From positions 32,001-96,000 of IMG/VR virus record IMGVR_UViG_3300024518_005299: a stretch of 64,000 nucleotides of DNA; one strand, 5' to 3'. Of the stretch, positions 3,532 through 59,475 are shown piece by piece (the stretch's first letter is position 1; the number at the start of each line of letters is the position of its first letter). This stretch comes from a virus. The notes below the pieces were generated by a model. That model ran no database searches. It was given only the letters and a program-made list of their open reading frames with translations, and was not told the origin of the DNA. The translations under genes were made by a program, and so were the position numbers.

Positions 3532-4274
3532 TGCATGGAATTTATCAAATACAAAATCTTGTGAATAGCAAGCTTTATCTTGGAAGCACTACTGTCTATG
3601 GATTTAATCGTCGTTGGCGTTCTCACTCAACTGCTTTGAAACGAAATAAGCACTCCAATAGACACTTGCAGTTTGCTTGGAACAAGCATGGGGAAGAAGT
3701 CTTTATATTTGAAGTTATTGAGTATGTCATTAGATTAGATGAGATGACTGATAAAGAATGGAAAACCTTGGTTCTTCAGAGGGAGCAATATTATCTAGAT
3801 ACAATTTTATTTGCTAGTTGTAAAGATCAAAGATTTCATAAATTAGGGTATAATATTTGTCGTAGGGCTGGTAATACATTGGGTTGTAAAATGTCTGAAA
3901 AAACTAAAGCAGCGATGAGTAAAGCTCATAGCGGTGAGAATAATCCTATGCATGGTAGAAATCATTCAGCTTCTACTAAAAAGAAGATAGCGATGAAAGC
4001 CACAGGAAGAGAGCATTCGATAGAATCTCGTAGGAAGATGAGCGAATCACGTAAGGGTAAGCAAGTAGGATCAGACAATCCTATGTATGGCTCGATTCGT
4101 TCTCGTGGAGAGTTGAACGCGCAGGCAAGACTTACTATAAATAATATAAAAGATATTAAAAAATTATTGACTGAAGGCATATCCCAATATATTATCGCTC
4201 AATTATTCAATGTGCGACAATCAACTATTAGTAGAATTAATACTGGTAAAAGATGGGGGCATATAAGTGGCTGA
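3528..4274 (+). mobile_element. Free-standing GIY-YIG homing endonuclease (NUMOD3-like repeats, C-terminal HTH)
   Basis: GIYQIQNLVNSKLYLGS, REQYYLD..GYN, MSKAHSGENNPMHG repeats, TISRINTGKRWGHI end. ATGA overlap with upstream stop. Confidence 0.9.
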
Positions 4275-5754
4275 TCCTCAATCGACTATTCCCGGTTTAA
4301 GCGCGTCTTTTATACAGGTAAGTTATGGAGGTAGTATATTACGCCCGTCACCATTGATTGCGCACTCTGTGCAAATCGAGCGTGATGATGCTGACAATCG
4401 AGAAGTTATCCGTACGACTAGGACGTTAACGGGCACGATCCTTACTTCGGGGATCAGCTACCATTTTGTTAGGCAGAAACAGCGTGAATTAGAAGACGCA
4501 TTTTCGATAGATAATCTTGAGTTTAAGATTCTTGCTACAGCGGGCCATCCATGTTTGGTCGCTGGCACGCCAATTGAGTCTGGTGTTTATCCTCTCGTGC
4601 AGTCTATTGATATTCGAGAAGACCAACAATTTAATCGTTTATCGTACAGTATTGTCTTGGAGGACGCAACCGCTCCGAGCGGGATCTCTGGCTTAGTCAC
4701 CAACCTAGCAGACACTTGGTCTTACACGGAGAATGACACAGAATGTCTAGTTGATATCACTCACAATATTAGTGCTCAAGGTGTAAATACTGCAATCTCT
4801 GGATTGCCATCTAATGCCTTAAGCAATGCGCAGGCTAGGGTCAATCAGCTACTTGGTCTCGCGTCAGCGCCTCAAGGGTTCCCTTCTCATGTAGAGCCGG
4901 GTAGTGGCAGTAATGTAAGGTTCTATGAAATAACTACATCTCGTGAAGAAACCGTCAGCGCTGAAGATGGGTCTTATGCTGTTTCAGAAAACTTCAAGTT
5001 GGTCTCGGGACTATTGCCTTTTAATGATGAAAGGACTGCTCAATTTCAACTAGACGATGCTAGTATCACGACCATTACGCTTCAAGGCACCGTTCGTGGC
5101 ATGGGGCGCACTAATGATGGGGCTCCTGCTGGATCTAGTCGCTCTAGTGGAGGAACTGGATTCGTCAATGCTCTAAGTGGTTTTGAGAACTTAGTACGTC
5201 CAGAGTGGACTAGCGATGCATTGAATGTTTATGATCGATATGGTGGGTCTGGCGCATTAGTTATTGGTAGGCCTCAATCAACTTCGATCTCGCAGAATCC
5301 TTGTAATGGCACGATTGGCTATAGCGTCACCTATACAGACAATCCAACGGAAAACCTACCTAGTGGTATTCAAGAAAGAGCCTGTTCGGTTCAGCGCAAT
5401 GATCCTGTTGTTTCTAATGCAATTATTCCTGTTCCATTTAGCGCCCTGGGTCCTGTATTTCAGAGACTATGCTCGACCTCAGCGGGCACCTATGAGGTCA
5501 CTTGTAATGTAATTGCAACCAATACTGGTCAAGAAGTGATAGATACAAATAGAGCGATTGAAGTTGCGGAACAAGAAATCATTAAATTACAGCCTAATCC
5601 CGCAAATTTCATTAAGCTTAAGTTGACTGGTCGCCCTCAAAATGTGGATAGAATTAATAGAAGCATAAGTACGACTTGGACTTGGACGTTCAGTCAAGAT
5701 ATCGCCACCGTCCCCTCAGACACAGGTCCAATCACATTAGGGAGGATAAGCTAA
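4267..5754 (+). CDS. Putative tail/baseplate structural protein, 495 aa
   Basis: GTG start overlapping the HEG end. Beta-strand-rich S/T/G composition. First non-HEG gene after the tape measure. No recognisable catalytic motif. Confidence 0.45.
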   Translation: MADPQSTIPGLSASFIQVSYGGSILRPSPLIAHSVQIERDDADNREVIRTTRTLTGTILTSGISYHFVRQKQRELEDAFSIDNLEFKILATAGHPCLVAGTPIESGVYPLVQSIDIREDQQFNRLSYSIVLEDATAPSGISGLVTNLADTWSYTENDTECLVDITHNISAQGVNTAISGLPSNALSNAQARVNQLLGLASAPQGFPSHVEPGSGSNVRFYEITTSREETVSAEDGSYAVSENFKLVSGLLPFNDERTAQFQLDDASITTITLQGTVRGMGRTNDGAPAGSSRSSGGTGFVNALSGFENLVRPEWTSDALNVYDRYGGSGALVIGRPQSTSISQNPCNGTIGYSVTYTDNPTENLPSGIQERACSVQRNDPVVSNAIIPVPFSALGPVFQRLCSTSAGTYEVTCNVIATNTGQEVIDTNRAIEVAEQEIIKLQPNPANFIKLKLTGRPQNVDRINRSISTTWTWTFSQDIATVPSDTGPITLGRIS

Positions 5755-6287
5755 TGGCTACATTCCCAACCGTTTCATTCTTACAATTTGATGTTGACAC
5801 AGACCCTAGTGGTGTTCGTGACTTAGAAGCGAGTGCAGTTAAGGTATTAGATACGACCATTACTGGATGTTTGGATCTTGGTAATACTAATACTTCTACC
5901 TCTGGTGCGATTAGTGATACTACGATGTTTGTTTTTCGTGTGTCTGATCTAGGTGATGCTTCTGGTGTCTATAATTTACGATTTTACTTAGAGAATGCCT
6001 CAGCATTTAGTGTTGGCAATTATCGCTTCTTGTATAAAGTTGCAACTCACTATCAAGGTGCGGGTTTCACTCTTGGTCTAGGTGACTTAGATATTCCAGT
6101 TGTTCAGCCAACGACACAGAATGTCTTAAGTACAAGCGGTCAGCCTACTTTGAGTGGGACCTTTGACGGGCATGTCTCACAGTATATTTATCTAGCTGTT
6201 TTTACTGATACTGACGTCCCATTCGGAAGTTACGGAGGTTGTGGAGCTGGAAGCTTTAGATATAAAATGGTGTATGACTTCTCATGA
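5754..6287 (+). CDS. Putative virion protein, paralog A (177 aa; true start ATG 5754)
   Basis: GGAGG SD then TAATG overlap. Shares motifs with the next ORF (DPxGxRxL, VSxxIY, PxGxxGxCGxGSxR..DF). Confidence 0.5.
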   Translation: MATFPTVSFLQFDVDTDPSGVRDLEASAVKVLDTTITGCLDLGNTNTSTSGAISDTTMFVFRVSDLGDASGVYNLRFYLENASAFSVGNYRFLYKVATHYQGAGFTLGLGDLDIPVVQPTTQNVLSTSGQPTLSGTFDGHVSQYIYLAVFTDTDVPFGSYGGCGAGSFRYKMVYDFS

Positions 6288-6874
6288 GTTCAGGTGTTCC
6301 ATTTCCAGTTTTACAGTTTTCCTCATGGGATAATTCTGAATTTGCAGACCCTGTAGGAACGCGCCACTTAGTATCTGGTGCTTTTGCCTATGATAAGTTA
6401 GTGGGGATAGGCTGCGATTTTGCCATGGCGTTTAATAACCTTCAACTTAATGCTGGGGAAAATCAGCCTTTCGTAGGGTCGAACGTGGCGGTTATTAACT
6501 TCAGCGTGCCCAATATGGGCGAGCTGCAAGCCTCTGGATTGACGGCGGTTTCTAACTTTAGATTATGGATTCCGGCAGGCTCCGGCTCTATCATAGACAC
6601 CCCAGGAGCCCACTTAGAGTTTTTCACAAGCGGTGTTTGGTCACCTAATGTTGACTTTCCTAGTGGCCATGGGCAGCCCTTTTTACGAACTTTACCTACT
6701 CAATTTAATGTTCGCCAAATAGACGGCAGGGCTGAATTGACTAGTTATACAGATGTTGAAGTGTCAGAATGGATATATATTAAAATGTTTCTAGACGAAC
6801 GATTCCCTTTAGGAACTTTTGGAGTATGTGGCAGTGGTAGCTTAAGACCAAGGCTCACATTTGATTTTTATTGA
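6284..6874 (+). CDS. Putative virion protein, paralog B (196 aa)
   Basis: ATGA overlap. C-terminus FPLGTFGVCGSGSLRPRLTFDFY aligns with VPFGSYGGCGAGSFRYKMVYDFS of the previous ORF. Confidence 0.5.
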   Translation: MSSGVPFPVLQFSSWDNSEFADPVGTRHLVSGAFAYDKLVGIGCDFAMAFNNLQLNAGENQPFVGSNVAVINFSVPNMGELQASGLTAVSNFRLWIPAGSGSIIDTPGAHLEFFTSGVWSPNVDFPSGHGQPFLRTLPTQFNVRQIDGRAELTSYTDVEVSEWIYIKMFLDERFPLGTFGVCGSGSLRPRLTFDFY

Positions 6875-6948
6875 TATTCAAGTACTTTTAGTGTATTAGA
6901 ATCATAGGGGAATATCCCCTAGAACTAGTTCTTTTAACGTTTAGGAGG
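6871..6948 (+). promoter_or_regulatory. Putative promoter, two adjacent inverted repeats and strong SD upstream of the 61-aa ORF
   Basis: TTGATA-17nt-TATTAG (6871-6899). TAGGGG-aatat-CCCCTA (6905-6921). Perfect 12-bp palindrome AGAACTAGTTCT (6921-6932). AGGAGG at 6943-6948. Confidence 0.45.
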
Positions 6949-6953
6949 TCATC

Positions 6954-7139
6954 ATGGCAACTATCAATGGAGCTTCCAGTACCAACAATGTCAATCGTAT
7001 GCGCATGAGTAAGTCGCGTCGGCTATTACTCTATAGCGATCGTAACCCAACCACGGATGCGTTTGTCGGTGTTGCTCAGTTTGTGAGCCGTTTGTCTGTG
7101 ACTGAGGTCACACTGACTAACCCGTTCACCATCGCCTAA
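6954..7139 (+). CDS. Small 61-aa protein in its own apparent transcription unit
   Basis: Strong AGGAGG SD 5 nt before ATG. Flanked by a promoter-like region and a terminator. Confidence 0.65.
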   Translation: MATINGASSTNNVNRMRMSKSRRLLLYSDRNPTTDAFVGVAQFVSRLSVTEVTLTNPFTIA

Positions 7140-7165
7140 TTGGGCGAGCTGACTGGTTTGATATG

Positions 7166-7198
7166 AGCGGCTACCTGAGATATGGTAGCCGCTTTATT
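7166..7198 (+). terminator. Rho-independent terminator
   Basis: Perfect 10-bp stem AGCGGCTACC / GGTAGCCGCT with 8-nt loop, followed by TTATT, 27 nt after a stop codon. Confidence 0.7.
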
Positions 7199-7224
7199 AG
7201 AATGGGGATAGGATAGGGTAAGAT

Positions 7225-7752
7225 ATGGCGCTTTTTGATTTTGAAATCGTTTATTCAGGCATAGCGTCAATTCCGACAGCTCCAGATATTGAAGTTGGTA
7301 TTACAGTATATTCTCGATTTGTTAATTTATATAATGAGTTACATGAAATCTCAATGTATTTGAATCCCGACATTATGAGTAGTGGGTTTAACGCTATTCA
7401 AGTAGGCGGTACGGCAATTGGTGGATCATTAGAGCAATATATAGGCTTGGTAGTTAATCAAAGGAATCAAAGAAGAATAATTGTATATGCTAATAGTAGA
7501 GAATTTATTTGTCATACACGACCAGATGAAAGATTTGAAATAGATGATACGGTGCTTGTATATGCACATATTAGTCATAGATCAGGACGTTTTGGTAGTC
7601 CGGTTTGGAATGCAACTAAGAAAATGTTAACACGACCAGGTATATTATCTATGATTGTGGATTTACAGGGCGCGGGCGGATCAGGTATTGGTAGAATAAA
7701 CGTAGACCCATATTCAGGAGAGATACATTATGGCTCGGGCTTGGAATCCTAA
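7225..7752 (+). CDS. Hypothetical protein in the structural module, 175 aa
   Basis: Clean ORF with G-rich upstream SD. Overlaps the start of the fibre gene. Confidence 0.5.
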   Translation: MALFDFEIVYSGIASIPTAPDIEVGITVYSRFVNLYNELHEISMYLNPDIMSSGFNAIQVGGTAIGGSLEQYIGLVVNQRNQRRIIVYANSREFICHTRPDERFEIDDTVLVYAHISHRSGRFGSPVWNATKKMLTRPGILSMIVDLQGAGGSGIGRINVDPYSGEIHYGSGLES

Positions 7753-10700
7753 TCCTGGTTCAGTAAATTATTGGAGGAGTGACAATCCATGTTTGGTATT
7801 ACTCCATCTTATGGGTGATGACGAACCCCCTCCACCAACAGCAGCGTCCTTAGGCCCATGGTCCACATTTCGTAAAGATAGCGGTCCAATGAAGCTTCAT
7901 GTTACTGATGGGACAAATCCTGACGCGGCTAGTTTTGAAACTAATATTGGAGTAGCCACTACTGGACTTGCACCTTCACAAAACTTTGGTGATGGAACAG
8001 GACATCCAACTACGAGTGATAGCGGTTTAATATTCAATGGCTCTAGTTGGGTTGCTGGAGCACATGCTGAGGGGTTTGGCGTTAATTTTGGTGATTACTT
8101 AATGGAGCGTGAAAACGCTACCAGTAATGGTGGTATGGGCACCTGGAGTTTTTCTAACCCAAGTGGCTTGACGATATGTGGCTGGTGTAATTTTGCAAAA
8201 ACTTCAACAAACACTTCTACTTATCGTCGTATTGTTGGGGTTCGTAGTATTGAAGGATCAACCAACGGTGGTTGGAGTGTGTCTATACGTCCTAATGATA
8301 TGTCGTTACGTTGGGAATTTGTAATTGCTGGAGGCACACGGTTACGAGCCGTTACCACGATTGGAAATGCCAATAACCCTGTGCCTGATGAACCGTTTTT
8401 CTTTGCGTGTCAAATTAGTCGTGATAGAGAAAATGAACAGGGTACAGGATATACTAGTTGTAATGCTAGTGGAGTAATGTCTATTTGGATTGGGACTCCT
8501 CAAAGTGGTTTAATTCATACTACACGAGGATCATTTGCTCACTCTAATGTTTGTGGATGGGGACCACTTCGTGCAGATTATATCTCTTATGGAGGAACTG
8601 GTAATGGAGTAAACGGGATTTCTAGTAGTGAGCATTTGTCTCCAAATAGCGTTATTGACTCTATTGCGGTGATAAACGACGCGCCCAGCACTTCTGGCTT
8701 GGAAGTCTTACGTTTGAATGGTTGGAATCATGTTCCGGCAACTTCAGATGTAGAGCATTCTAGTTTTGTACCAGTATTACCTGGTACAGAGGATCTAGTG
8801 GGATATTGGGATTGGATTGATGAGTTTACTTCACAGGGTGAAGATAGTTTTGTACTATTAAATAAAGCCCCCACAACATCAGGCATTTTACCGATTGATT
8901 TTATCGCCCCCGGTGGTGCGTCTTTTGGTGCAACTTTTTCCACTGCTGATAATACGGCTGATCCGGTTGTACCATTTACTAATAAGTCTATGATTCCAAA
9001 CGAGACTACGACGGTTGGTGGGCAAATTAGCAATGTTAATGATACAGGGATTGGAGTATTAATTCCTGCCGGTAGTGGGATTAATCATCTTTTTCCATCC
9101 ACTAATCCAGGCAAAGAGGGATGGACGTGGATTTATTGGGCTCAAAATGCAGTGGAGATAGGATGGCAGCATAAGACATTAACACAAAATAATACTAAGT
9201 TTGTTGAAAACTATGGAGATGCCTCTAACTTTGAGAATCCAGGATCATACAATGTAAACTTTAGAGGTAGTGGTATTATCAAAGAAGGCATTATGTATAC
9301 CCCAGCAGCCACTACTAATAATCGTAATTTACGAAAAGTAGCTACAGATGAATGGCACCTTAGAGCTATCGTGTGGCAAACAGATGCCACGATGGTGTAT
9401 AGTTATTGGGATGGTAATTCATTAGAGTTTGCTAGTCAACGCGCCCATCCTTCATCTGGCTTTTCTAAAGAAGGACATGTTGAAGATCCGGACGCCAGCG
9501 TTTTTCGTATTCGGAATGCTACGCCAGGTAGTGTGACGACTTCACAATGGGGTCCTGTTGCAGTATATAATCGTATTCTAAGTGTGGCTGAAATGTCTGG
9601 CTGGGCTTTAAGCGGTGTGAGTACGGTTCCGTTCGTATCACCTATTGGTACGAATTTTAAACAAACCTTAGGTTATTGGCCACTAGACGAATTTACAGTA
9701 TATCATCCAACAATTGTGTCTGGGGTGCGTCTGAATGATGAGAGTTGGTATCGTCATCATTTGACAAATGTTAGTGGGCAATTTAGCTTTGATGCCGATC
9801 CGCTTAATTCGCGTATTGCTAATAATGCCTTGCAGGTTGATACTAGTGGAGCTATGGTTTCCTTAGAAAGAATTTTCACTGGAAGCAACTTAGATATGTC
9901 AAATACACGCGTTGTAGGATCCAGCGGGTTCTCGATGGGTTGTTGGATGCACTTACCATCCGGAGATTTAGAAACCCAAGGTAATGGCTCTAGTGGATTA
10001 TTTGGCGACCATATGTTTATGGGTTGTTGGGACCAAGAGGTTGATAGTCGATCCTGGTTTTTGGGCATGGTTGATAATAAGATACGTGGTCGTGTTGTTT
10101 TAGATGACGGAACCGTGCGTAATTTTAGCACCAATCTCACGCCTCGTTTTAATGATAAGTTTTTCGTGGGCATGGACGTGCAACCATCAGGTAGTGTGTT
10201 GAATGGTCGTATGTTTTATGCTGAAGAATTTGCAGATGATGAGTTTTTAGCTATTCATGATTCAACATTTGGTAATTCAACCGACGTCTTACAGAGTGTT
10301 GGCGCCAGTGGTTTTAGTATTCTAAATGCTCCTAATTTACAATTTGGTTTTCCATCAGGAACTAGGATGAATAATCCATTTGTTTATGCTGGCGCCCCTA
10401 TTGTATCGGATTGGATTGGTATTAAACAGGCTGGAATTAATGAGGTAACTTTAGGTTCAGGGGCTGTTTCTGTTACGGATCCTGAAAACATTAGTCATTG
10501 GAAATTTGATGATCAAGCTTCGCGTTTTGTTGACTTTGGTAAGGAGCAAAACTTTTTATTCCCCATCAATCAAGATGGCAATAAAATTGGTGTCATAGGC
10601 GCTATCCATAGTAGTGGCGTTGTCATTAGACGACCAGAATATTATGATACTTTAGCTAATAATCCTCAATCACGTCGCCTAGATTTAGGATCGGGCAACC

Positions 10701-12241
10701 AGTCGTGGACATTCTTAAGTTGGGTATTCCCGCCTACTATTTCAAATTCTGATCGCCATTACATCATGGCCAAGAGTGATGGTATGTCTGGTATTCAGGT
10801 TTACACACCGCCTGATAGTTTGAACCCAACTACGAATGCCTCGGGCATAATATCAGCTAGTGAAAATGGAAGCTTAGCTCCAGGACAATGGAATCATCTA
10901 GCCGTAGTATTTGATCGTAACAATAACGAATTCACAACGATTGTCAATGGTCGTTATGCCGGTACTACCTTTGACACTTTAGTAGAAGTGCCTGTAAATA
11001 ATTCTGGCATGGCATTCGGTGGTCGTGGAGATCAACAACTTGTGGCTTTGCCTGGAGGTAGTGCGTTTTCTGGTTATCTAGATGACCCAATGTTATTCTC
11101 CAGGGCTCTTACCCTACCGGAAGTCTCAGGGTTAGCAGCTAATAGTTATAGCTATAATGATGGGTATACTGAATTTACAGGAGGCCCAGTTGGTGGTTAT
11201 ATAAGTGGTCTTCCACAATTTATTATCTCAGGCTTAATTGGTTCGTTCTTACATGGTTCGGCTCAAGACGTTGAATTGATTGGTGGTTATGTCAGTGGTG
11301 TCGAGGGATTGTGTATTCCATATGGTGGTTTTATACATGGTAAAGCATTCACCAGTGGGCATATAGGCGCATTCCTACATGGATCTAAAGAAGCCAGTGG
11401 AGTCTTTGGGCACTTCATTCATGGTATTGATAGCGTTAGTGGATTCATTGGTCATTATGCGTTCGGTGCATGTGAGTCTAATGGCGAGTTTGATGTGATC
11501 CTTAATTTTTCTGTTATTACCAATAAAAGTTTTGATGCGCGGCTAGGTGTTGAGAAGACACAATTTATTGACTTTGATGCTAAGCTAGGTGTTATTCGAA
11601 TTACACAACCACCAAGCTGCACGTTTGAAGCGCCTCTAACTGGAGAGCTTGGATCGGGCACACCATTTGTACTAACCGTTAGTGGTAGTGGTATTGCGCA
11701 AGATAATAAAGATATCATTGGAACTCGTTTTACATTTGCTGATTTTAAAGACGCTGAAAAGGGTACGTTAGTTGGTGGTGTTGCTAATAGTGGGTTATAT
11801 CAAGCACAGCGCGAGTTTGATACGGCAGGTTGGTTCACGCTGAAAATCGAAGTTATCGACAGCTTTGGTTATCGTGCTAGTTGCTGTCGTCCATTTTTAC
11901 TCGTGCCATCCGGCTCTACATCAGGCGCATTCATCAATAGCCTACCAGGAGTTTCAATTGAAAGTTCAACAAATACTGGTAGTGCCATTAATACGGTATC
12001 CTTTACGCACTCATTATCGGGTTTAGATACAACCAGCGGGTTGTTATCGTACACGGATTACAGTGATCAACAAGAGAGTTTAGTTGACAGCTTAGAGATG
12101 CCAGTGGGCACTCAGTTTGTTGACTTTGTTAGGAGGCATGACTACACCATGCCAGGTTTTTACTGCCCTATCTTTGTTGTCTCGGGCGAGTTCGGCATTG
12201 TGTCGGATACCGTTGCGAATGGAATTGACTACATTGTTTAA
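7730..12241 (+). CDS. Large tail fibre/adhesin with LamG (concanavalin A-like) and C-terminal PKD/Ig-like domains, 1503 aa
   Basis: LamG-type motifs LAPGQWNHLAVVFD..TIVNG..AFGG..FSGYLDDPMLFSRALT, LVGYWDW, LGYWPLDE, ISHWKFDD. PKD-like REFDTAGWFTLKIEVID and RHDYTMPGFYCPIFVV. Confidence 0.7.
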   Translation: MARAWNPNPGSVNYWRSDNPCLVLLHLMGDDEPPPPTAASLGPWSTFRKDSGPMKLHVTDGTNPDAASFETNIGVATTGLAPSQNFGDGTGHPTTSDSGLIFNGSSWVAGAHAEGFGVNFGDYLMERENATSNGGMGTWSFSNPSGLTICGWCNFAKTSTNTSTYRRIVGVRSIEGSTNGGWSVSIRPNDMSLRWEFVIAGGTRLRAVTTIGNANNPVPDEPFFFACQISRDRENEQGTGYTSCNASGVMSIWIGTPQSGLIHTTRGSFAHSNVCGWGPLRADYISYGGTGNGVNGISSSEHLSPNSVIDSIAVINDAPSTSGLEVLRLNGWNHVPATSDVEHSSFVPVLPGTEDLVGYWDWIDEFTSQGEDSFVLLNKAPTTSGILPIDFIAPGGASFGATFSTADNTADPVVPFTNKSMIPNETTTVGGQISNVNDTGIGVLIPAGSGINHLFPSTNPGKEGWTWIYWAQNAVEIGWQHKTLTQNNTKFVENYGDASNFENPGSYNVNFRGSGIIKEGIMYTPAATTNNRNLRKVATDEWHLRAIVWQTDATMVYSYWDGNSLEFASQRAHPSSGFSKEGHVEDPDASVFRIRNATPGSVTTSQWGPVAVYNRILSVAEMSGWALSGVSTVPFVSPIGTNFKQTLGYWPLDEFTVYHPTIVSGVRLNDESWYRHHLTNVSGQFSFDADPLNSRIANNALQVDTSGAMVSLERIFTGSNLDMSNTRVVGSSGFSMGCWMHLPSGDLETQGNGSSGLFGDHMFMGCWDQEVDSRSWFLGMVDNKIRGRVVLDDGTVRNFSTNLTPRFNDKFFVGMDVQPSGSVLNGRMFYAEEFADDEFLAIHDSTFGNSTDVLQSVGASGFSILNAPNLQFGFPSGTRMNNPFVYAGAPIVSDWIGIKQAGINEVTLGSGAVSVTDPENISHWKFDDQASRFVDFGKEQNFLFPINQDGNKIGVIGAIHSSGVVIRRPEYYDTLANNPQSRRLDLGSGNQSWTFLSWVFPPTISNSDRHYIMAKSDGMSGIQVYTPPDSLNPTTNASGIISASENGSLAPGQWNHLAVVFDRNNNEFTTIVNGRYAGTTFDTLVEVPVNNSGMAFGGRGDQQLVALPGGSAFSGYLDDPMLFSRALTLPEVSGLAANSYSYNDGYTEFTGGPVGGYISGLPQFIISGLIGSFLHGSAQDVELIGGYVSGVEGLCIPYGGFIHGKAFTSGHIGAFLHGSKEASGVFGHFIHGIDSVSGFIGHYAFGACESNGEFDVILNFSVITNKSFDARLGVEKTQFIDFDAKLGVIRITQPPSCTFEAPLTGELGSGTPFVLTVSGSGIAQDNKDIIGTRFTFADFKDAEKGTLVGGVANSGLYQAQREFDTAGWFTLKIEVIDSFGYRASCCRPFLLVPSGSTSGAFINSLPGVSIESSTNTGSAINTVSFTHSLSGLDTTSGLLSYTDYSDQQESLVDSLEMPVGTQFVDFVRRHDYTMPGFYCPIFVVSGEFGIVSDTVANGIDYIV
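11192..11467 (+). repeat. Degenerate ~14-aa His/Gly tandem repeat within the fibre protein
   Basis: SGLIGSFLHGSAQD / YGGFIHGKAFT / SGHIGAFLHGSKEA / SGVFGHFIHGIDSV / SGFIGHYAFG. Confidence 0.7.
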
Positions 12242-12877
12242 ATGAGAAAAACACTTCATCAAAAGGATTTAGATTTTTTTCAAACACCTAATGAACTTAA
12301 TTGTTATTGGGCGGGTTTCATAGCGGCTGATGGAAATATCCAGCCTTCTAAAAATACTGTATGCGTTGTGCTTGCAGCAAAAGACAAATGTCATTTGGAA
12401 AAATTAGCAAAAGATATTCAGTATACTGGATCTGTTAAAGACACTATTACTAAACTAAATAATAAATCTTATCCGGGTGCCCGTTTGAGTATTTGTGGCG
12501 CATCTAATATCATCCACGATCTAGAATTGAATTTCAACATCATAGCCAATAAGTCTTTGACCTTACAATCACCCCAACATCTATCTAGAAGATTATCGTT
12601 GGCATTTATTATTGGATATTTTGATGGTGATGGCTCTACTGGAGTATACAAAAGTACAGGTCGTAGAATGGTGTTTTTAGGCACTTACGATATGCTTAGC
12701 TGGATTAAAGTAATATTTGATGAAGAGTTTCCACAACATGTTTATAAAAATCTGCCCACTGTACGTAAACATAAGGGCATATATGAATATGGCGTTTGTG
12801 GTAAAAGGGCAGAGTATATCATGTCCAAATTGCGAGAAATTGATGTGCCTCGTCTGGGAAGAAAGTGGGCTAGATGA
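12242..12877 (+). mobile_element. Free-standing LAGLIDADG homing endonuclease
   Basis: YWAGFIAADGNI and FIIGYFDGDGS motifs. Starts immediately after the upstream TAA and ends in an ATGA overlap. Confidence 0.88.
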
Positions 12878-15120
12878 CATGTTCAGACGATCCATCAGGA
12901 GTATTTGAATTTATAACTCGTCCTATTACTTATCCTAGACTACCGTTTCAGTTGACGTCAGGTGAGTTGGTGACGTTTGAATCAAGATTCTTTTCATTAC
13001 CGGCATATAGTCTATTAGCTGCCAAACGCCTATTTACAGAATCGGCTTCTCATCCTATCGCCAGTGGTGACGTTAAGCTTTACATCAATAAAGATGCGGG
13101 GATCGCTCCTAATATTGAGCCCACTCTAAGCGGCGTTGAGTATCTAGACGGGACGCCACACTATGTGGATTATATAACAGACATGCGTTCGCTCCTTAGT
13201 GAGGTAGTTAACTTACAAGCAGCAGATTCTGATTGGCTTGCATCTCATTTTCTAGAAGCTCATTTAAGTAACGCTCGTGCAACCTATGCTACAGACGTGG
13301 GGGATGGTCAATTTGTACATCCCGAACCAACTAGCACGGTCCCTTCTGGAGCAACTCCTCCTGGATCTTCAGGTTCTATCCAGCCTCCTGGTGATGGATT
13401 TGAATTAGGCGCACAACAAATGATGGATATTGATATGGATGAGATTATGTATCTTCCAATCATCCGTCCTAAAAATCAAAGTTCAACATCGATTGATACT
13501 GCTTCTATTCCTACTGAGCCAATATTTCCTGCCGTGATTACTACAGCAGGTGCAGCGCCAATATTAAATTCTTTTGATGAAAATAATTATAATCAGCTTG
13601 CTTTAGGGGTTCATGCCTCTGGCGGTGGGTTGTTAGTGACTGGAGATGTATTAATCAATGGAGCGCAGGCTCCTGATCTTACATCACCTTCCGTTAAGTT
13701 TTTGACTGGGTCTGGTCAAACCGGAGTAGCAGAAGGAGCATTTAGAGAAGAAATTCCATGGGCTTTATATCCTGCGCAAAGGGAACTTTGTTCTTACTAC
13801 ACGCCAGAAGTTGCGATTAACACAATCAACGCATCGGGGCGGCAGGCGCTCTTCGATGTTCCCGGCGTGTCTTTAACAAACAATACAGTATTGCTTCTAA
13901 ATGTATCCGAGGCGGGTACTAGTGGACAAGTAGTTGCTAATTATCCTGCAAATTACCATGCCACAAGTGGTATTGATGCCAATGGACATGCACATAACGG
14001 TGTTCATGTTTGTAATAAGTTGATCTATGATGTAGGTAGTAACCCGGCAGTTGGTTTTAGTCCTGTTAATGGTCAGAAAGTATTTGCTCATTATCTCGAT
14101 TCGTCTTCTACCAGTTCGAAAGGTCGTCCGTGGTCGTCTGCAGCAGCAAAATATCAAAATGGTGATAACCTATTTGGAAAGGGTCAAATCGTTACCGCGT
14201 TTGATGGAAGCACTGGTTCGGTTATTAACTGGGCTAGTACTAATAATACATTTTCGCCAGTGTCTTGGGCAGAGCTTAAAACAGAGGCGTTACAACCCAT
14301 TGTCTTCTTTGGTCATGCGAGTGTTAATTTTCAGACAGCAGACATACAGGCGGGGTCTGATCGTGGAGTTATATCGCTTAAACAATATGCACAATGGGGA
14401 TTTATTGATACTATCGTCTTTCCTGATTTAGATCGCGCGCAGGGTGGACAACGTAAGACGAGTACTATCACTACAACAACTAGTAGTTATAAAGAAGGTA
14501 AGAATTCTATTGGGGAATTTGCTTGGATTGAGTTAGATGATTCTCCGGTGACTACGACATCCGACATTATATTTTACGAGAATACATTTGGTGTTAACAA
14601 TATCTTTTCATTCTTTTTTGATCAAAGGCCCGGTAATGGATTTGTGCATGTCAATGGAGATATTTATGTGCAGTGGACCCTTCTCTCATTTGCGGCTGGT
14701 GATGCCACTTTGCGCAATAATCTATTTGCTCCTATCGGTGATAGGTCATTTATATTAACGCCACCGGAGAGTCGATCTGATGTGATCGTCACTATTGGAT
14801 TTTTCCCATCATGGGCGCGACGTCGTTATATTACTGTTAATAACCAAGTTTCAGTTCCAAGGAACATTGAGTTGTCGCCAGCTAATTCATCCACTATTTC
14901 ATTTGATCCGGATATTGGATTTGATGATACTTTTGTCACAGAATATAGCGCTCCAGTTTGGGATCCAGACAATGGGGTAAATTATCTTTATTTTCGATGG
15001 AGCGATGGTGGTTCGACCAGGATCTTTTTTGCTCATATGAATACAGATTTTGTCATTTTTCGAATTAACCAAGTGTCTGAGGGCGTCTTATTTGGTAGGC
15101 CAGTCCTATTGTCAATTTAA
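12874..15120 (+). CDS. Putative tail/fibre structural protein, 748 aa
   Basis: S/T/G/P-rich, beta-type composition, structural module context. Confidence 0.45.
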   Translation: MTCSDDPSGVFEFITRPITYPRLPFQLTSGELVTFESRFFSLPAYSLLAAKRLFTESASHPIASGDVKLYINKDAGIAPNIEPTLSGVEYLDGTPHYVDYITDMRSLLSEVVNLQAADSDWLASHFLEAHLSNARATYATDVGDGQFVHPEPTSTVPSGATPPGSSGSIQPPGDGFELGAQQMMDIDMDEIMYLPIIRPKNQSSTSIDTASIPTEPIFPAVITTAGAAPILNSFDENNYNQLALGVHASGGGLLVTGDVLINGAQAPDLTSPSVKFLTGSGQTGVAEGAFREEIPWALYPAQRELCSYYTPEVAINTINASGRQALFDVPGVSLTNNTVLLLNVSEAGTSGQVVANYPANYHATSGIDANGHAHNGVHVCNKLIYDVGSNPAVGFSPVNGQKVFAHYLDSSSTSSKGRPWSSAAAKYQNGDNLFGKGQIVTAFDGSTGSVINWASTNNTFSPVSWAELKTEALQPIVFFGHASVNFQTADIQAGSDRGVISLKQYAQWGFIDTIVFPDLDRAQGGQRKTSTITTTTSSYKEGKNSIGEFAWIELDDSPVTTTSDIIFYENTFGVNNIFSFFFDQRPGNGFVHVNGDIYVQWTLLSFAAGDATLRNNLFAPIGDRSFILTPPESRSDVIVTIGFFPSWARRRYITVNNQVSVPRNIELSPANSSTISFDPDIGFDDTFVTEYSAPVWDPDNGVNYLYFRWSDGGSTRIFFAHMNTDFVIFRINQVSEGVLFGRPVLLSI

Positions 15121-15131
15121 GATTTATTCTA

Positions 15132-15154
15132 TTTAGTGTATAATTAAAAGGAGG
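15132..15154 (+). promoter_or_regulatory. Putative promoter -10 and SD upstream of a GIY-YIG gene
   Basis: TTTAGTG-TATAAT (TATAAT at 15139-15144), then AGGAGG at 15149-15154. TTTAGTGTAT also occurs at 6887-6896. Confidence 0.45.
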
Positions 15155-15160
15155 ATAGGA

Positions 15161-15874
15161 ATGCAAACAGGTGTGTATCAGATTAGAAATCTTAAAAATG
15201 ACAAGCTCTATATTGGCAGCGCCGCCGGTCAACGCGGTTTTGAGCACCGCTGGGGTAATCATTTGAGTGATTTGAATCTTGGTCGACACGACAATTCTTA
15301 CTTACAAAGAGCTTGGGATAAGTATGGTGCTGAAGCTTTTATTTTTGAGATTCTAGAGATGTGTCTTTCCGAGCAATGTATTGAGCGAGAGCAGCACTAT
15401 ATGGATTCTTTACTTTTTGCTAGCTGTAATGATCAGAGATTTAAACAATTAGGATATAATATTCTGAGGGTGGCTAGTAGTTCGTTAGGGTATAGACATT
15501 CTGATGAAACAAAGATTAAGATGAGCCAATCAGCTAGTGGCAAGAACCATCCTATGTTTGGTAAAAATCTTACACAAGAGCGCAGAATGAAGATTAGTAA
15601 AGCATTACAAGGTAATAAGAACTCTCAAGGCGTTGTGCGTTCTGAAGAGGAGAGGCGACGAATCTCACAATTGCATAAAGGAAAGATAGTGTCTTTAGAA
15701 ACGAGAAATAAGTTATGTTTAGCAAATGCCAAGCTAACAATAGAACAAGTGCGTCAAATTAGACATATGTTAGCATTAGGGTGTGCTCAACAAAAGATTG
15801 CGGAAGTTTTCAATATGTCGAAAAAGGCTATTTCTAAGATTAAATTAGGACAAACATGGGGTGACATCAAATGA
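15161..15874 (+). mobile_element. Free-standing GIY-YIG homing endonuclease
   Basis: GVYQIRNLKNDKLYIGS, LFASCNDQRFKQLGYN, NUMOD3-like repeats, KIKLGQTWGDIK end. Confidence 0.9.
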
Positions 15875-16527
15875 ACTCGCTAACTTTTTTTGCTCCATCG
15901 GGGGCTCCTGCGTCAGGGACTGTGATTGAAGCTTTAGATCCGCCCGGTAACACCTCAGGTGCTAATAGCGTAGGATTTTTTGGAGCAGGCGGTCCTCAAG
16001 GGGTGCCATTTGCAATTATCGTTAATAAGTACCAGGATTCCACCTATATTACAGGCGTAAGCGGTTATAATATGGGCGTTGCTCCATTTGGAGTGAAGGC
16101 TAGTGGAGAACTTCTTAATACCAAATTTGAAGATACAACCTTGGCTAACGTTGCTGGTGTCGCTGGGGTAACATTAGCTGACATCCCCCAACTTTCTGGG
16201 ACCGTGCTCGTGCGCTTTGTACCATCAGGAGTTACTCCGGTGAGGACGCAAAATGTCCTATGTCGTACTGTAGTTCTTAATGCATCTAGCGGTGTAGACG
16301 ATGTGGCTGGCGTACCTGTAGGTTTAAAAATCCAAGGCTTTGAGCCTGGTGCTGATAGTTCTTGGACTCAAACGGCTGGCATTGGCGCTCTAGATAATCG
16401 CGTCTTCCTAGTTGATCACAATGCTACAGATCTAGTGCATGATTTCTTCGTATCACTTTCAGCTTCACCAGAGGCAGTTGGTGAACGTAATGATTTTGGT
16501 TTCCTATTCATAGTTGAGTTCCTTTAA
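15871..16527 (+). CDS. Putative virion structural protein, 218 aa
   Basis: Gly/Ser/Val-rich, ATGA overlap, 8 Ser-Gly dipeptides like the other structural ORFs. Confidence 0.45.
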   Translation: MNSLTFFAPSGAPASGTVIEALDPPGNTSGANSVGFFGAGGPQGVPFAIIVNKYQDSTYITGVSGYNMGVAPFGVKASGELLNTKFEDTTLANVAGVAGVTLADIPQLSGTVLVRFVPSGVTPVRTQNVLCRTVVLNASSGVDDVAGVPVGLKIQGFEPGADSSWTQTAGIGALDNRVFLVDHNATDLVHDFFVSLSASPEAVGERNDFGFLFIVEFL

Positions 16528-16611
16528 GATGTCAAAAGACATCAAGATAGGTGTCTACACTATTACTAATATTGGAAACATGTGATAGTTTTAAAATGGA
16601 GAGGTTAAACG

Positions 16612-17085
16612 ATGAATTTAAAAACGATAGCAGAAAGTGCGCCATATCATTTGGCGACTAGTATCAATCAAACTCCTTTCCACAGATTTTGGGTAGTGTT
16701 GTTAGAAAATGGTTTAGAGGTTTATCAATCTTGTGATGATCCTAAGTTAAAAGAACCAAATTCGTGGATGCGCCTTAAACAATTTTGTCAAGACAACAAT
16801 GTGAAGCCTGCGAGTATGGCGGTTGCAAGCGCAGACTTAAATCCACATACGCAGATTAATCTAGATCCTCTTGCGGAGGGTTATTTCTACACCAAGCGGA
16901 TACGTAAGTTAATAGCGGCTAATCCTAATTTTTCGGGTCGTGAAGACCACGCCCAGGGTGTCGGACAGCTATATAAGGATACGCTAAAAATTATCTGGGA
17001 GCTTGATGATGGTAGGATTGAAATGGAAGAACGGAATATCAAAGATAATCCAAAATCCAACTTGGTATCACTTATAAGAAAATAG
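16612..17085 (+). CDS. Hypothetical protein, 157 aa
   Basis: GGAGAGG SD upstream and a clean ORF. Confidence 0.55.
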   Translation: MNLKTIAESAPYHLATSINQTPFHRFWVVLLENGLEVYQSCDDPKLKEPNSWMRLKQFCQDNNVKPASMAVASADLNPHTQINLDPLAEGYFYTKRIRKLIAANPNFSGREDHAQGVGQLYKDTLKIIWELDDGRIEMEERNIKDNPKSNLVSLIRK

Positions 17086-17086
17086 G

Positions 17087-20000
17087 ATGACTTATAGTCT
17101 AGCGGGAGAAAGCATTAGCGTTGAGGGCTTGGGGCTTGGTGACTGCAGCCCAATTATTACCTTCCCGTCTGGGCAAGTTCCCCTTAGTCAACCAGGCCAT
17201 GACTTAGAAGCGGCATTGCTGCAAATCAATGCTAGTTTTGGTTTTAATACCACCCCTCATAATTTCAACACATCATGGGTGCCTACCCGCGATGACCCGC
17301 AGGGATTTCATGGCGCTAGTGGACAGGCGCCTCTTCCCGGGGAAATCATCGGCTTTACTGTTGGTCAATTTTTAGTCAGTGGTGAGATTGTTCACTCAGA
17401 ATACCGAGTGAATTCAGGTGGCACTATCCTACAGATTAATCTTCGTGATACTCGTCGCTGTCTAGATGCCATTAAGTTGATGACAGAAGACCTTAAGGAT
17501 AATCCTGGGTCTGGCGTGATTTCTGTCGCGCGCGGTGTTCGTATCACCAAAGGTTTTACAGATATTGAAGGGAATATTTCCGAGGCACTCTTTCGGGAGT
17601 ACCGCAAGGTTTTAGAGCAAGGCTGCACATATCCTCAGATTCTAGATGCTATTCAGCTTGCTATTGATACAGGTGAAATTCAATTTGATATCAGCAAGAT
17701 TCCATCTAGAGAAGATCTTGAAGCAAATCTGGGTGGTGATGCGGCTGCGATTCGATTTAACTTTACAGGAGAGCCCCTCTCAGAAGCCATCACTCGTATT
17801 TTAGAAGCCACAGCGTATGATTGGTATTGGAGTATGTCCGAACAAAAGATACGCCTTATCAATCGGAAGATAGCTTTTGAGCTACGCGAAGATGAGCTGC
17901 TTAATATCGTCGCATCTCTAGGTGCAGCTAGTGGACTTGAGCAAACAACAAGCTTACAGTTCGGTGATGACTTAGTGACCCAACCACGTCGTGTTCGCCT
18001 ACTTGGCGCGCACCAAGAGGGCTGGTTGAACTCTGCGCTCCTAGCTGATATTGATGGTGTTGACGCGCCAGCATCCGGTATAGTTTTTACTCCAGCATGG
18101 CCTAACTTTTCCGTTCAATTCACAGATGCAGTAGGCATCTTGCGTGATTATATACCTGGTGATACAGAACTTCGTGCTGCTCTTAAAAGCATTGAGCATT
18201 GGACTTATTTTAAGAAGTATCAGACTACGGCACCTAACCTGGGCTTGACGTCTCCTGGATTTGGCTTGCCTATTGATGCGGGTAGTATTGCTGCACAACA
18301 TCCAGATTTTGCGAGTCGCGCTGATCCAGCCCAGCCTATTGCTACTCTAGGTGGTAATGAGTCAGGACAACTTCGTTTGATTAATAATCGTCGTGACGCT
18401 AATCAGAACTGGGTGCTCAATTTTTATAATCGTGTTCGTGATCATGCTACGAGATTCTTTGGTCGCGCCTATCTAGCGTCTGGCATTTTGGCTAATGAAG
18501 CTTCTGGTGCCTTCAAGCTTGCGACTGCAGCCTGGGGGAATGTTGAGAACCAGGTAGAGGGGCAGAGCATTAGTGCTACGGGCTCTAGTGGCCTCTTTGT
18601 CAATAACTATGAGATAAATCGTGATCTTGGTCCTCTCGCGCCTTTCAAAGGGACAGACGACAAGATTGCTTCATATGCTGTTTTGCCGTCTGGTACGGTT
18701 TATGGCACTGAGGGCGAAGAGCCACCCGCAGCCTTCGGTCAGTGGACGGAAGACTATAACATAGGTAACGTCCCAGCAACTTCAGGTCGCCGTGCACGTA
18801 CTGGAGAGCATTACATTCCTGTTACTCTTCTAGAGGTGGGCGATTTAGTCATCGATCCTCGTGATCCTTTAGCTGCATTTGAAGCGTATCCAGAGGGGAC
18901 TGTATTATGCGAGCTTCCAATTATCGCAGGCACAGGTTTATCTGAAAACTTTACTTTTCGTAATCTTGTTACTTTAACGGAAGACGCGCTAGACTCTGCT
19001 GGGTCTGGCATATTTGATTTACCTGATCCAGGTTTGTTGGTAGAGCCATATCAAACGTTAGTAGGAGTAGCTCTTCCGGTTACATTCACTGAACGTTATG
19101 GTATGTCATTTCCACAAGAATGGACGAGTGGAACTTTAAGTACAGATTGTGATAGTGAAATGGTAGTTGTAGATGATACATTTGCTCCATGGAACTTTCC
19201 ACCACAGGGACGAACGACCTCTCTCCAATTAATGGAGGATCGTGCTTTCCGTCGCTTGCAAGGCTTGATCGCGCCCGCAGCCAATTCTCAATTTGCTCAG
19301 ATTGAACTCGTTGGATTGCCAACAATCTCTTTTGACTCATTCTCTAATGCAGCACCCAACGCTAGTGGATTTATAGGCATTAGGAATCATGGTATCACTG
19401 ATGTTAACTTTAGTCTTGGCGTTGGTGGCATCCTCACAAATTATCGCATTGGAAGTTTCTTTGCAGAGTTTGGAAAAGAAGCACCTCTCGGTGAACGTCA
19501 ACGTGCAATTCTAAATGGTATTATTAATCCCATAGATGTTGATTTAGCCAGTCCACTTACGCCAACAGAAAGGACTCGTCCCCGTCGACCCAATGGTCCG
19601 ACAGTGATTAGCAACATCCCAGGGCGGGGCGAGACAATTCGTCGTGCTACTATTGATGAGGTGAATTTCGCCTTGACATTCAACAACACCCCTGATGCTG
19701 GTACGCAAGAACGCTATCGTGGCGTGACTAAACAAGAATACACAGTACCTGCTAAAATTGCTGGTAGCACTGATCCAGATTTTGATGATACGGTTGGAAA
19801 GGGCGGCGCATTTTGTATAGATGGATTTTTGAATATTGGTGATGAAGCACTTTACCACGTAAATGAATCTAAACTCCCAGGGCAACTTAGGGTTATCCAA
19901 CGTTACTGGGCTGGCGGTCGTCCATTCTCGAATGGTACTGTGGTTTTTGTCAGCGGCATTGGCAGTACGTCTTCCTTGTTTGATGTGGCAATTCAAGGCA

Positions 20001-20449
20001 CGAGCCCTCTTCGCCGTCTAGCTGACGTGCCTCTTTTAAATGGAGCAGTGAGCGTTGGAGAGTTTTCAACTTTAGCTGCTCAAGCATCTCAAGGTACTCC
20101 TCGTGTTTTAGAACGTCCAGGTTCGGCATTGGCTGTTCCGGGTGTATTTCTTAATCCAGGTGGTAACTCTTCACTACCAGTGGAGATTGTGTCGATCACA
20201 GATGTAGGAACCTCGGGGGCTATTGTGTCAGTGAGGAAGCTGACAGACAATGGCGATATAGATAAAAATGCAAGTTTAGAAACGAACGTTGTTCCTATTC
20301 CACATGCAGAGTTTGTGATCGTAGGTGACAAAGGGGTGTTCTTGAGTGCTGCAGTTTTAAATACAAACTCAAGTAGTCCCGGGACGGGTGAGGAAGAGGT
20401 AGGCAAATTCTTTATGTCAAATAGACAGAATTTTATCAAGTTTGGATAA
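17087..20449 (+). CDS. Large putative tail-tip/baseplate protein, 1120 aa
   Basis: Last gene before the replication module. Composition resembles structural proteins. No enzyme motif recognised. Confidence 0.45.
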   Translation: MTYSLAGESISVEGLGLGDCSPIITFPSGQVPLSQPGHDLEAALLQINASFGFNTTPHNFNTSWVPTRDDPQGFHGASGQAPLPGEIIGFTVGQFLVSGEIVHSEYRVNSGGTILQINLRDTRRCLDAIKLMTEDLKDNPGSGVISVARGVRITKGFTDIEGNISEALFREYRKVLEQGCTYPQILDAIQLAIDTGEIQFDISKIPSREDLEANLGGDAAAIRFNFTGEPLSEAITRILEATAYDWYWSMSEQKIRLINRKIAFELREDELLNIVASLGAASGLEQTTSLQFGDDLVTQPRRVRLLGAHQEGWLNSALLADIDGVDAPASGIVFTPAWPNFSVQFTDAVGILRDYIPGDTELRAALKSIEHWTYFKKYQTTAPNLGLTSPGFGLPIDAGSIAAQHPDFASRADPAQPIATLGGNESGQLRLINNRRDANQNWVLNFYNRVRDHATRFFGRAYLASGILANEASGAFKLATAAWGNVENQVEGQSISATGSSGLFVNNYEINRDLGPLAPFKGTDDKIASYAVLPSGTVYGTEGEEPPAAFGQWTEDYNIGNVPATSGRRARTGEHYIPVTLLEVGDLVIDPRDPLAAFEAYPEGTVLCELPIIAGTGLSENFTFRNLVTLTEDALDSAGSGIFDLPDPGLLVEPYQTLVGVALPVTFTERYGMSFPQEWTSGTLSTDCDSEMVVVDDTFAPWNFPPQGRTTSLQLMEDRAFRRLQGLIAPAANSQFAQIELVGLPTISFDSFSNAAPNASGFIGIRNHGITDVNFSLGVGGILTNYRIGSFFAEFGKEAPLGERQRAILNGIINPIDVDLASPLTPTERTRPRRPNGPTVISNIPGRGETIRRATIDEVNFALTFNNTPDAGTQERYRGVTKQEYTVPAKIAGSTDPDFDDTVGKGGAFCIDGFLNIGDEALYHVNESKLPGQLRVIQRYWAGGRPFSNGTVVFVSGIGSTSSLFDVAIQGTSPLRRLADVPLLNGAVSVGEFSTLAAQASQGTPRVLERPGSALAVPGVFLNPGGNSSLPVEIVSITDVGTSGAIVSVRKLTDNGDIDKNASLETNVVPIPHAEFVIVGDKGVFLSAAVLNTNSSSPGTGEEEVGKFFMSNRQNFIKFG

Positions 20450-42418: not shown

Positions 42419-42640
42419 ATGACGAGACTTATCAGTGTCTGCATAGTCCTATTTGAGGTTTTGCTCTTAGCACTAGGTGTTGTCGCGCTTTGCTATCCGT
42501 TTACGTTATTACCACATCCAAGCAACGGACCACGGACACCTGAGCAATTGGAAGCTTTTAAGGAGCACGTAGTCCTATTACCTGCGGGGGTTATTTTAAT
42601 AGCCTTGGCAATTCAAAGGTATTTTAGATCTCATGAATGA
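42419..42640 (+). CDS. Small membrane protein with two hydrophobic segments
   Basis: LISVCIVLFEVLLLALGVVALCYPF and VVLLPAGVILIALAI. Confidence 0.6.
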   Translation: MTRLISVCIVLFEVLLLALGVVALCYPFTLLPHPSNGPRTPEQLEAFKEHVVLLPAGVILIALAIQRYFRSHE

Positions 42641-46455: not shown

Positions 46456-46458
46456 ATT

Positions 46459-59221: not shown

Positions 59222-59475
59222 AACAATATCTTTTATTTCTAGGTGAAAATTATTATCCATATGGTGGTTGGAAAGATTTTCATGGAGAGTTTGATTCCGT
59301 AAAAGAAGCCAAACAATTTGTGGCTGATAATCCTACGTTTGAGGACAATGGTCATCGGGCTAAGATGAGCTGGGCTCAGATTGTTGATACTACTATCAAT
59401 AAAATAGTTTCAGTATATAAATGGCGATGGAATGAATCCAAACTACATAATGAACCTGGGTGGAAAGAAGAATAA
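59218..59475 (+). CDS. Hypothetical protein, 85 aa
   Basis: YLLFLGENYYPYGGWKDF N-terminus. ATGA-coupled. Confidence 0.55.
   Translation: MKQYLLFLGENYYPYGGWKDFHGEFDSVKEAKQFVADNPTFEDNGHRAKMSWAQIVDTTINKIVSVYKWRWNESKLHNEPGWKEE

Follow-up and report, generated by a model that had tools for sequence, protein, structure and literature searches.

A serine–glycine tag in the distal tail proteins of an uncultured phage lineage and its possible reading as a glycosylation sequon

The distal tail proteins of an uncultured phage carry a marked excess of serine followed by glycine, very often with a hydrophobic residue next in line (hereafter the SG tag). We studied this excess in a 64,000-nucleotide stretch of DNA (the window), which spans bases 32001–96000 of a 131,680-bp IMG/VR contig (record IMGVR_UViG_3300024518_005299; estimated completeness 83%) from a lineage of uncultured phages of 130–180 kb. 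The S-G-hydrophobic bias is real, directional, serine-specific and strongly conserved, and the tag belongs to the distal tail, not to the whole virion. Among the explanations weighed below, a glycosylation sequon fits best, and we put it forward tentatively.

A serine-specific bias in distal tail proteins

Expected counts were obtained from composition-preserving shuffles, and hydrophobic means L, I, V, F, M, W or Y unless a pattern says otherwise. When 13 tail-tip and fibre proteins were pooled (5967 aa), SG was found 158 times against 60.8 expected (z 14); the runner-up dipeptide reached z 4.75, and GS, SS and GG lay at or below expectation. SG followed by a hydrophobic residue stood about fourfold over chance (85 versus 19.3 expected; z 16), and the extended pattern [APTG]SG[LIVFMWYA] was found 56 times against 7.2 expected. 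The reverse order, hydrophobic-G-S, showed no enrichment, and TG, NG, DG, AG and GG followed by a hydrophobic residue were all at or below expectation in the pooled set. Charged residues were depleted at positions −2, −1 and +1 of SG, with 7–13 observed per position and 25 expected.

The bias had first been proposed in an earlier note, from hand counts on the window, which proved exact for the 1503-aa fibre (44 SG, 23 GS and 9 TG, with 30 of the 44 SG followed by a hydrophobic residue). We reproduced its counts for three neighbouring proteins (8 SG in 218 aa, 7 in 196 aa and 5 in ORF 5676–6287) and for two controls, DnaE (5 SG in 1138 aa) and the in-window portion of the tape measure (3 SG in 1176 aa). 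Shuffling, which the note had named as a check, confirmed the enrichment both in the pooled set and in the fibre taken singly (z 6.3).

That the excess is an artefact of composition or of the DNA itself, produced by high serine and glycine content, low-complexity runs, tandem repeats or a nucleotide motif, is barely credible. The tagged proteins are indeed richer in serine and glycine than the rest of the proteome, and residues 1159–1245 of the fibre form a true 14-residue repeat that contains SG. The shuffles nevertheless rule out composition and low complexity as the source, and the repeat region holds just about 6 of the 44 fibre sites, the others being scattered, as in the whole set of 13 proteins, along the full length of the chain. 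SG serines are encoded by both the AGY and the TCN codon families and all four glycine codons are in use, so the signal resides at the protein level and a DNA-level motif can be discarded. We also considered whether Ser-Gly might replace deamidation-prone Asn-Gly; this is unsupported, with NG at 36 versus 36.3 expected and DG just mildly low.

A scan of the whole 131.7-kb contig showed that the SG excess is confined to two places: the open reading frames (ORFs) that follow the tape measure gene (window 4267–20449, endonucleases excepted; Table 1) and a minus-strand fibre cluster at genome positions 113447–117548. The remaining 124 ORFs of the phage have an SG observed/expected ratio (O/E) of 1.01, and the block that runs from the head genes to the tape measure, with portal and terminase, has 0.98. 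No excess was found in DnaE, the tape measure, the glycan-island proteins or the three homing endonucleases inside the tail block. The claim that the motif saturates the virion proteins thus has to be narrowed: capsid, portal and tape measure are untagged, and only tail-tip, baseplate and fibre proteins are enriched. At least 13 proteins carry the tag, all of them in the distal tail and mostly without detectable mutual similarity, several being paralogues. The tag can be ruled out as a generic property of tail fibres, because the baseplate, short and long fibres and fibritin of phage T4 (7828 aa) have an O/E of 1.03 for SG and 0.71 for SG-hydrophobic, and the tail proteins of Bacillus phage Slash, which is among the nearest cultured phages by terminase (24% identity), have SG ratios of about 1.0–1.4 that are not significant.

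Conservation and structural setting of the tagged serines

The tagged serines are kept with unusual fidelity. Eleven IMG/VR relatives (68–79% identity in the 1120-aa tail-tip protein) retain the SG excess in the same genes. When the fibre is aligned five ways, invariance is seen for 52% of SG serines, 9% of other serines and 14% of residues other than serine and glycine. Likewise, 5 of the 7 SG serines of the 196-aa protein and 7 of the 8 in the 218-aa protein are invariant in five relatives. Out of 34 invariant SG serines, 7 change codon family (AGY/TCN) among five relatives. The positional counterparts of the 175-aa ORF in four relatives are poorly conserved, barely alignable, and hold 0–1 SG. 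More broadly, 43 full-length fibre homologues at about 35% identity each contain 39–53 SG (mean O/E 2.66; z 5.6–11), and a conserved glycine follows 31 of the 42 serine columns that are conserved in at least 90% of them. The SG columns hold 481 serines versus 27 threonines, and threonine is no commoner there than alanine, glycine, asparagine, aspartate or glutamate.

To follow the tag beyond close relatives we ran an exhaustive HMMER search with the 1120-aa protein, which gave 53 representatives, of which the 32 longer than 300 aa were scored. Family members at 39% identity or more have SG ratios of 2.1–2.9, and most of those at 28–38% identity have 0.5–1.7. At the aligned positions the SG-poor homologues often keep the glycine after K, D, N, T or A, or carry other residues. 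In a quick maximum-likelihood tree, the SG-rich sequences form one clade (SH-aLRT 95), with the addition of P0015, a sequence of unusual composition nested among SG-poor ones, so that two changes are needed on this tree. The 1120-aa protein acquired its tag inside the lineage, with no change of fold and apparently on two occasions. The SG-poor homologues adjoin LamG- or PKD-bearing fibre proteins that are themselves SG-rich (21 SG versus 5.0 expected and 29 versus 11.5 in L018; 42 versus 18.8 in L013), so the tag is old in the wider clade and spread to the 1120-aa protein at a later stage.

The fibre gives the clearest view of where the sites lie. It consists of tandem LamG/ConA-like β-sandwich domains, followed by the 14-residue SG..HG repeat region and a C-terminal part. 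Its Pfam match, Laminin_G_3 at residues 990–1133, agrees with the result of Foldseek on an AlphaFold2 (AF2) model of residues 1–1000 (pLDDT 73; 44-sequence alignment), a string of β-sandwiches that matched laminin LG1-3, neurexin LNS and lectin-like domains. We assigned secondary structure around the 19 SG glycines that fall in confidently modelled blocks. Nine of them (47%) lie 0–2 residues before the start of a strand, compared with 11 of 62 other glycines (18%), and 1 of the 19 is in mid-strand. The SG pair recurs at the start of LamG-like domains and in their C-terminal helix; two pairs sit inside that helix, not in turns. As modelled, the SG sites would be loop-to-strand junctions, a location that accounts for the hydrophobic residues after SG and would suit an exposed acceptor as well as a structural cap. 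Structure mapping, which the earlier note had put forward as a check on surface exposure, did place about half of the modelled sites just before strands and two pairs in helices, an outcome that fits either role.

This geometry is one ground for a purely structural turn code, an explanation that we consider rather unlikely. Ser-Gly would here be what the lineage favours for closing a loop and opening a strand in tail β-sandwiches, with the serine unmodified: the glycine would adopt a positive phi angle, the serine hydroxyl would cap the backbone, and the pair would have spread by domain duplication or module exchange and been kept for folding. Beyond the enrichment before strands and the near-absence from mid-strand, such a code agrees with the finding that the entire SG excess of the fibre family falls at 46 positionally conserved sites, with an O/E of 0.64 elsewhere, with the recurrence of SG at fixed points of repeated LamG-like domains, and with the paralogy of several tagged proteins. 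Tight β-turns ending in glycine (type II, or type I with a G1 bulge) are found in all β-proteins, and D, N, T and S are interchangeable in them. The SG sites resemble such turns in that, at about half of the sites in the AF2 model, a glycine stands directly before a strand and after a small polar residue. They differ in that only serine is enriched, in one phage lineage and in distal tail proteins alone.

It is this difference that speaks for a sequon, since S, T, D and N would all be admissible in a generic turn, whereas TG, DG and NG followed by a hydrophobic residue are not enriched and threonine seldom takes the place of serine. The tail proteins of T4 and Slash have no SG excess. Distant homologues of the 1120-aa protein manage the same fold without SG, the tag having been gained in a burst, apparently twice, and a lineage-specific grammar that extends over proteins without detectable similarity demands a lineage-specific cause. 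The two SG pairs modelled within helices also appear to count for a sequon and against a turn. What calls for a lineage-specific reader, in place of a generic folding preference, is the combination of strict selectivity for serine, a fixed direction, extremely high conservation, confinement to the adhesive end of the virion and a burst-like gain without change of fold.

The glycan island and the reading of the tag

If the tag is a sequon, [P/A/T]-Ser-Gly-[I/V/L]-[hydrophobic] would be a recognition tag for a trans-acting phage enzyme, most likely a cytoplasmic glycosyltransferase from a conserved glycan island that lies downstream in the window. Prior to assembly or in its course, this transferase would O-glycosylate the SG serine of proteins in the tail tip, baseplate and fibres, and the sugar would be lengthened by other transferases from the island. 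The phage would thereby recognise its host through sugar-decorated structures, much as bacterial adhesins are hyper-glycosylated in the cytoplasm, for example HMW1 by HMW1C. That the serine is modified, that a sugar is what it receives and which transferase starts the process are all inferred. In its fullest form, which we hold possible and advance still more guardedly, the proposal is that this widespread lineage runs its own cytoplasmic O-glycosylation with the short sequon small-Ser-Gly-aliphatic-hydrophobic, hyper-glycosylating only the host-recognition apparatus at dozens of fixed sites per protein.

Pfam and NCBIfam annotation of the island gave at least 10 glycosyltransferase-like genes (two GT1/GT4-like at 35250–39472, five GT2/GT-A-like, two CgeB-like with PF13524, and one GT9-like), together with two DegT-family enzymes, two or three methyltransferases, a GNAT protein and an epimerase/dehydratase, interspersed with nucleotide-metabolism genes and four GIY-YIG endonucleases. 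The first GT1/GT4-like gene (35250–38273, 1007 aa) is split by an intein (Hint_2 at aa 389–427, LAGLIDADG_3 at aa 620–697, and an intein splicing domain); its orthologue in the complete 176-kb relative G002 has 627 aa and no intein. The island is syntenic in G002, with conserved flanks (43–75% identity) and a variable tailoring middle. PRTase (phosphoribosyltransferase)-like, GMP reductase/IMPDH (inosine monophosphate dehydrogenase)-family and MazG-like genes occupy its centre at window 44970–47570 and are also kept in G002.

In a hydropathy scan, no ORF had more than two predicted transmembrane segments in the genome studied here (G000) and none had more than three in the complete G002, and no dedicated flippase (Wzx), polymerase (Wzy), ABC exporter or priming transferase was visible in either genome. 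The only membrane-type ORF in the island, at window 42419–42640, encodes 73 aa, for which two transmembrane segments are predicted, and falls short of the size of a flippase. A surface-polysaccharide cluster of the O-antigen or capsule type, directed at the host envelope, would need a priming transferase and an exporter, and we set it aside on that ground; the island could conceivably draw on the export machinery of the host. Of the suggestion that the glycan locus at 35250–64000 modifies the SG sites, two parts have thus held up, a large and conserved island without a visible exporter and a bias on the outer tail; the link from the island to the SG sites did not emerge.

One candidate for a protein-directed transferase is the 289-aa GT9-fold (heptosyltransferase-like) enzyme. 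Foldseek with its AF2 model ranked the GT9 structure 3tov first (E 1e-15, TM-score 0.75), followed by WaaC, WaaF and then TibC (4rap; E 1.6e-8). Its NCBIfam match to heptosyltransferase I covers the N-terminal part only and is far below the curated cut-off. The protein has more than 100 homologues at 44–81% identity, some of them on contigs that match in length those bearing fibre homologues; it is found in G001 and G002 at 60–61% identity and is encoded by a conserved core gene of the clade. All five genomes that could be assessed (G000, G001, G002, L014 and L020) combine an SG-rich tail with sugar genes: GT2 genes are present in the first three, GT9 and GT2 genes lie 6–8 kb from the tail genes in L014, and epimerases, a GHMP kinase and a CgeB-like transferase stand beside the tail genes in L020. 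A conserved initiating glycosyltransferase pair common to our phage and L014 was looked for, and no similarity was found.

Several observations weigh against glycosylation. None of the five assessable relatives lacks glycosyltransferases, so the association of tag and island comes without a contrasting case and is confounded by common descent. The tail-adjacent glycosyltransferases of L014 are unlike those of our phage in sequence, with no similarity between them, and no conserved initiating enzyme can be named. The GT9-like protein appears, from its modelled fold, closer to GT9 enzymes of the lipopolysaccharide (LPS) type than to TibC, and is much shorter. Capsid and tail-tube candidates are untagged, unlike the corresponding proteins of glycosylated mycobacteriophages, and the non-virion proteins show no avoidance of the motif. 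The sites of the fibre family are fixed, without turnover, which is the pattern expected of a structural element and not of a glycan shield that drifts. Finally, the predicted position of about half of the SG glycines just before a β-strand, followed by two presumably buried hydrophobic residues, is what a folding element would also produce.

The tag might instead have a different trans-acting reader, such as a fibre-assembly chaperone for small-Ser-Gly-hydrophobic-hydrophobic segments or an enzyme that adds a non-sugar group to the serine (phospho- or acyl-), with the glycan island serving another target, be it the host envelope during infection or phage DNA. We judge this improbable. Both the burst in which the tag was gained on a conserved fold and its presence in proteins that share no detectable similarity call for a reader without specifying which, and the PRTase-like, GMP reductase/IMPDH and MazG genes within the island would suit a role away from the tail. 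Against it, no chaperone, kinase or acyltransferase came to light as a candidate specific for the tail module, we found no export or priming machinery for host-envelope glycans, and the search for a thymidylate-synthase-like hydroxymethylase, which would point to sugar on DNA, was likewise negative. What probability remains after glycosylation, the turn code, other readers and artefact we leave to causes that we have not thought of.

Precedents, implications and gene content

The closest precedent for reading the tag as a sequon appears, by analogy, to be the TibC/AAH family of bacterial autotransporter heptosyltransferases (BAHTs). Its members act in the cytoplasm and are GT-B enzymes akin to the LPS heptosyltransferases; they heptosylate many serines, and not threonines, of the β-rich adhesins TibA and AIDA-I, and a mapped acceptor, Ser-313, lies in N-S-G-G-A-V-I, where glycine and then a hydrophobic strand follow (PMC4358343). 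The phage clade similarly keeps an enzyme of the GT9 fold (GT-B, heptosyltransferase-like), and the tagged proteins would be its adhesins: the tag is serine-specific, stands before strands and is carried by fibres, the glycan on the phage proteins being hypothetical and the pattern drawn from sequence. The phage enzyme is shorter (289 residues versus 381–384 in the TibC chains of 4rap and 4rb4) and has only three cysteines, whereas TibC possesses a four-cysteine iron finger, a β-hairpin thumb and a dodecameric assembly. A phmmer search with the phage protein against PDB sequences found 3tov and did not find TibC. The substrates differ as well, being LamG-like sandwiches in the phage and β-helices in the BAHT systems.

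Mycobacteriophages encode glycosyltransferases and carry glycans at the C-termini of capsid and tail-tube subunits, according to the summary of Freeman et al. 2023 in PMC12619734. The resemblance lies in phage-encoded glycosyltransferases, which act there on the phage's own structural proteins in the cytoplasm. In our phage, by contrast, capsid and portal are without the motif, the sites are dispersed in tail-tip and fibre proteins instead of being clustered at C-termini, and the glycan island is much larger. The analogy to proteoglycan O-xylosylation drawn in the earlier note is harder to maintain. Eukaryotic xylosyltransferases use a serine-specific Ser-Gly acceptor flanked by acidic residues. 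The phage tag has the same serine-specific Ser-Gly core, but its flanks are depleted of charge and the residues that follow are aliphatic, so the comparison fails on the flanks, and Pfam found no enzyme of the xylosyltransferase type among the island ORFs.

No account of an SG motif on the tail proteins of phages turned up in searches of the literature. If the sequon is true, protein glycosylation by phage-encoded enzymes would gain its first acceptor motif defined by sequence, and some phages would build glycoprotein adhesins with an enzyme set of the size used for an O-antigen. Sugars would then be an integral and conserved part of phage adhesins, and tagged proteins would be legible from sequence, so that exposed tail proteins and their modification sites could be predicted from metagenomic data alone. 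It would also help to explain the many glycosyltransferases of large marine phages, and would bear on host recognition, protease resistance and the stickiness of particles. If the tag is structural only, it would still be a striking lineage-specific folding grammar and a cheap marker of outer tail proteins in unannotated phage genomes.

The genome offers few annotated anchors around the tagged genes. Nearly all genes are on the plus strand, and terminase, portal and then a 2052-aa tape measure ending at window 3531 lie upstream of the tail block. Among the large ORFs of this block (window 4267–20449), PHROG gave no match and Pfam matched the fibre alone; the clearly annotated ORFs are three GIY-YIG/HNH homing endonucleases. 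No cultured phage could serve as model or outgroup, since the tail region has no DNA or protein match there: tblastn against 50,697 phage records found nothing for the fibre or for the 1120-aa protein, nor did megablast with the tail region find a cultured phage. The GT9-like ORF of the island likewise had no tblastn match in these records, and TerL places the nearest cultured relatives at just 22–32% identity.

Table 1. Tagged genes of the tail block and glycan-related features of the window (window coordinates; SG counts are observed versus expected)
Feature	Coordinates	Strand	Evidence
495-aa protein after tape measure and homing endonuclease	4267–5754	+	11 SG versus 4.3; 8 then hydrophobic
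203-aa small tail protein	5676–6287	+	5 SG versus 1.8
196-aa small tail protein	6284–6874	+	7 SG versus 1.9; z 3.9
175-aa ORF	7225–7752	+	6 SG versus 1.7
1503-aa fibre	7730–12241	+	44 SG versus 18.4; shuffle z 6.3
748-aa tail or fibre protein	12874–15120	+	11 SG versus 6.1; z 2.1 (moderate)
218-aa tail protein	15871–16527	+	8 SG versus 2.1; z 4.6; 0 GS
1120-aa conserved tail-tip protein	17087–20449	+	18 SG versus 8.2
Glycan island	35250–63998	+	Pfam, NCBIfam
GT9-fold (heptosyltransferase-like) enzyme, 289 aa	58352–59221	+	AF2 pLDDT 95

Some of the tagged proteins can be placed further. The 495-aa protein has no Pfam or PHROG match, and its homologues adjoin the tape measure in the distant relatives L014 and L020, both of which also encode homologues of the 218-aa protein. 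The 203-aa and 196-aa proteins are paralogues (BLASTP 28% identity, E 8e-14). The 1120-aa protein is possibly Tal-like or baseplate-hub-like; its look-alikes in an atlas are the Prophage_tail and Sipho_Gp37 clusters, which we take as a lead only, and a PDB profile search with the family gave no match.

The second tagged cluster, on the minus strand about 17 kb past the end of the window, comprises five SG-rich ORFs (observed/expected 5/1.3, 8/2.1, 15/6.4, 4/0.9 and 16/5.2). They have modules in common, weak PHROG matches to "minor tail protein" and "virion structural protein" and, in one ORF, a collagen-like G-x-y stretch, and are probably additional fibres. Upstream of the window, at genome 25333–26715, a 460-aa ORF lies between head genes and tape measure. 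It contains 7 SG, of which six conform to the full [APTG]SG[hydrophobic] motif, the enrichment is seen in its G002 orthologue too, and the ORF may encode another tagged component of the tail.

Homing-endonuclease ORFs of the GIY-YIG/HNH kind are found between the tail genes (3528–4274, 12242–12877 and 15161–15874) and across the glycan island (43454–44293, 55708–56436, 59460–60644 and 60978–61688), the ORF at 59460–60644 having a weak C-terminal match to DUF4254; together they act as internal negative controls for the SG excess. The repeat region of the fibre (window about 11204–11464) is made of about six tandem units of the form S-G-x-[I/F]-G-x-[F/Y]-x-H-G and is conserved in the 43 homologues; its evenly spaced histidines are reminiscent of metal-binding fibre shafts.

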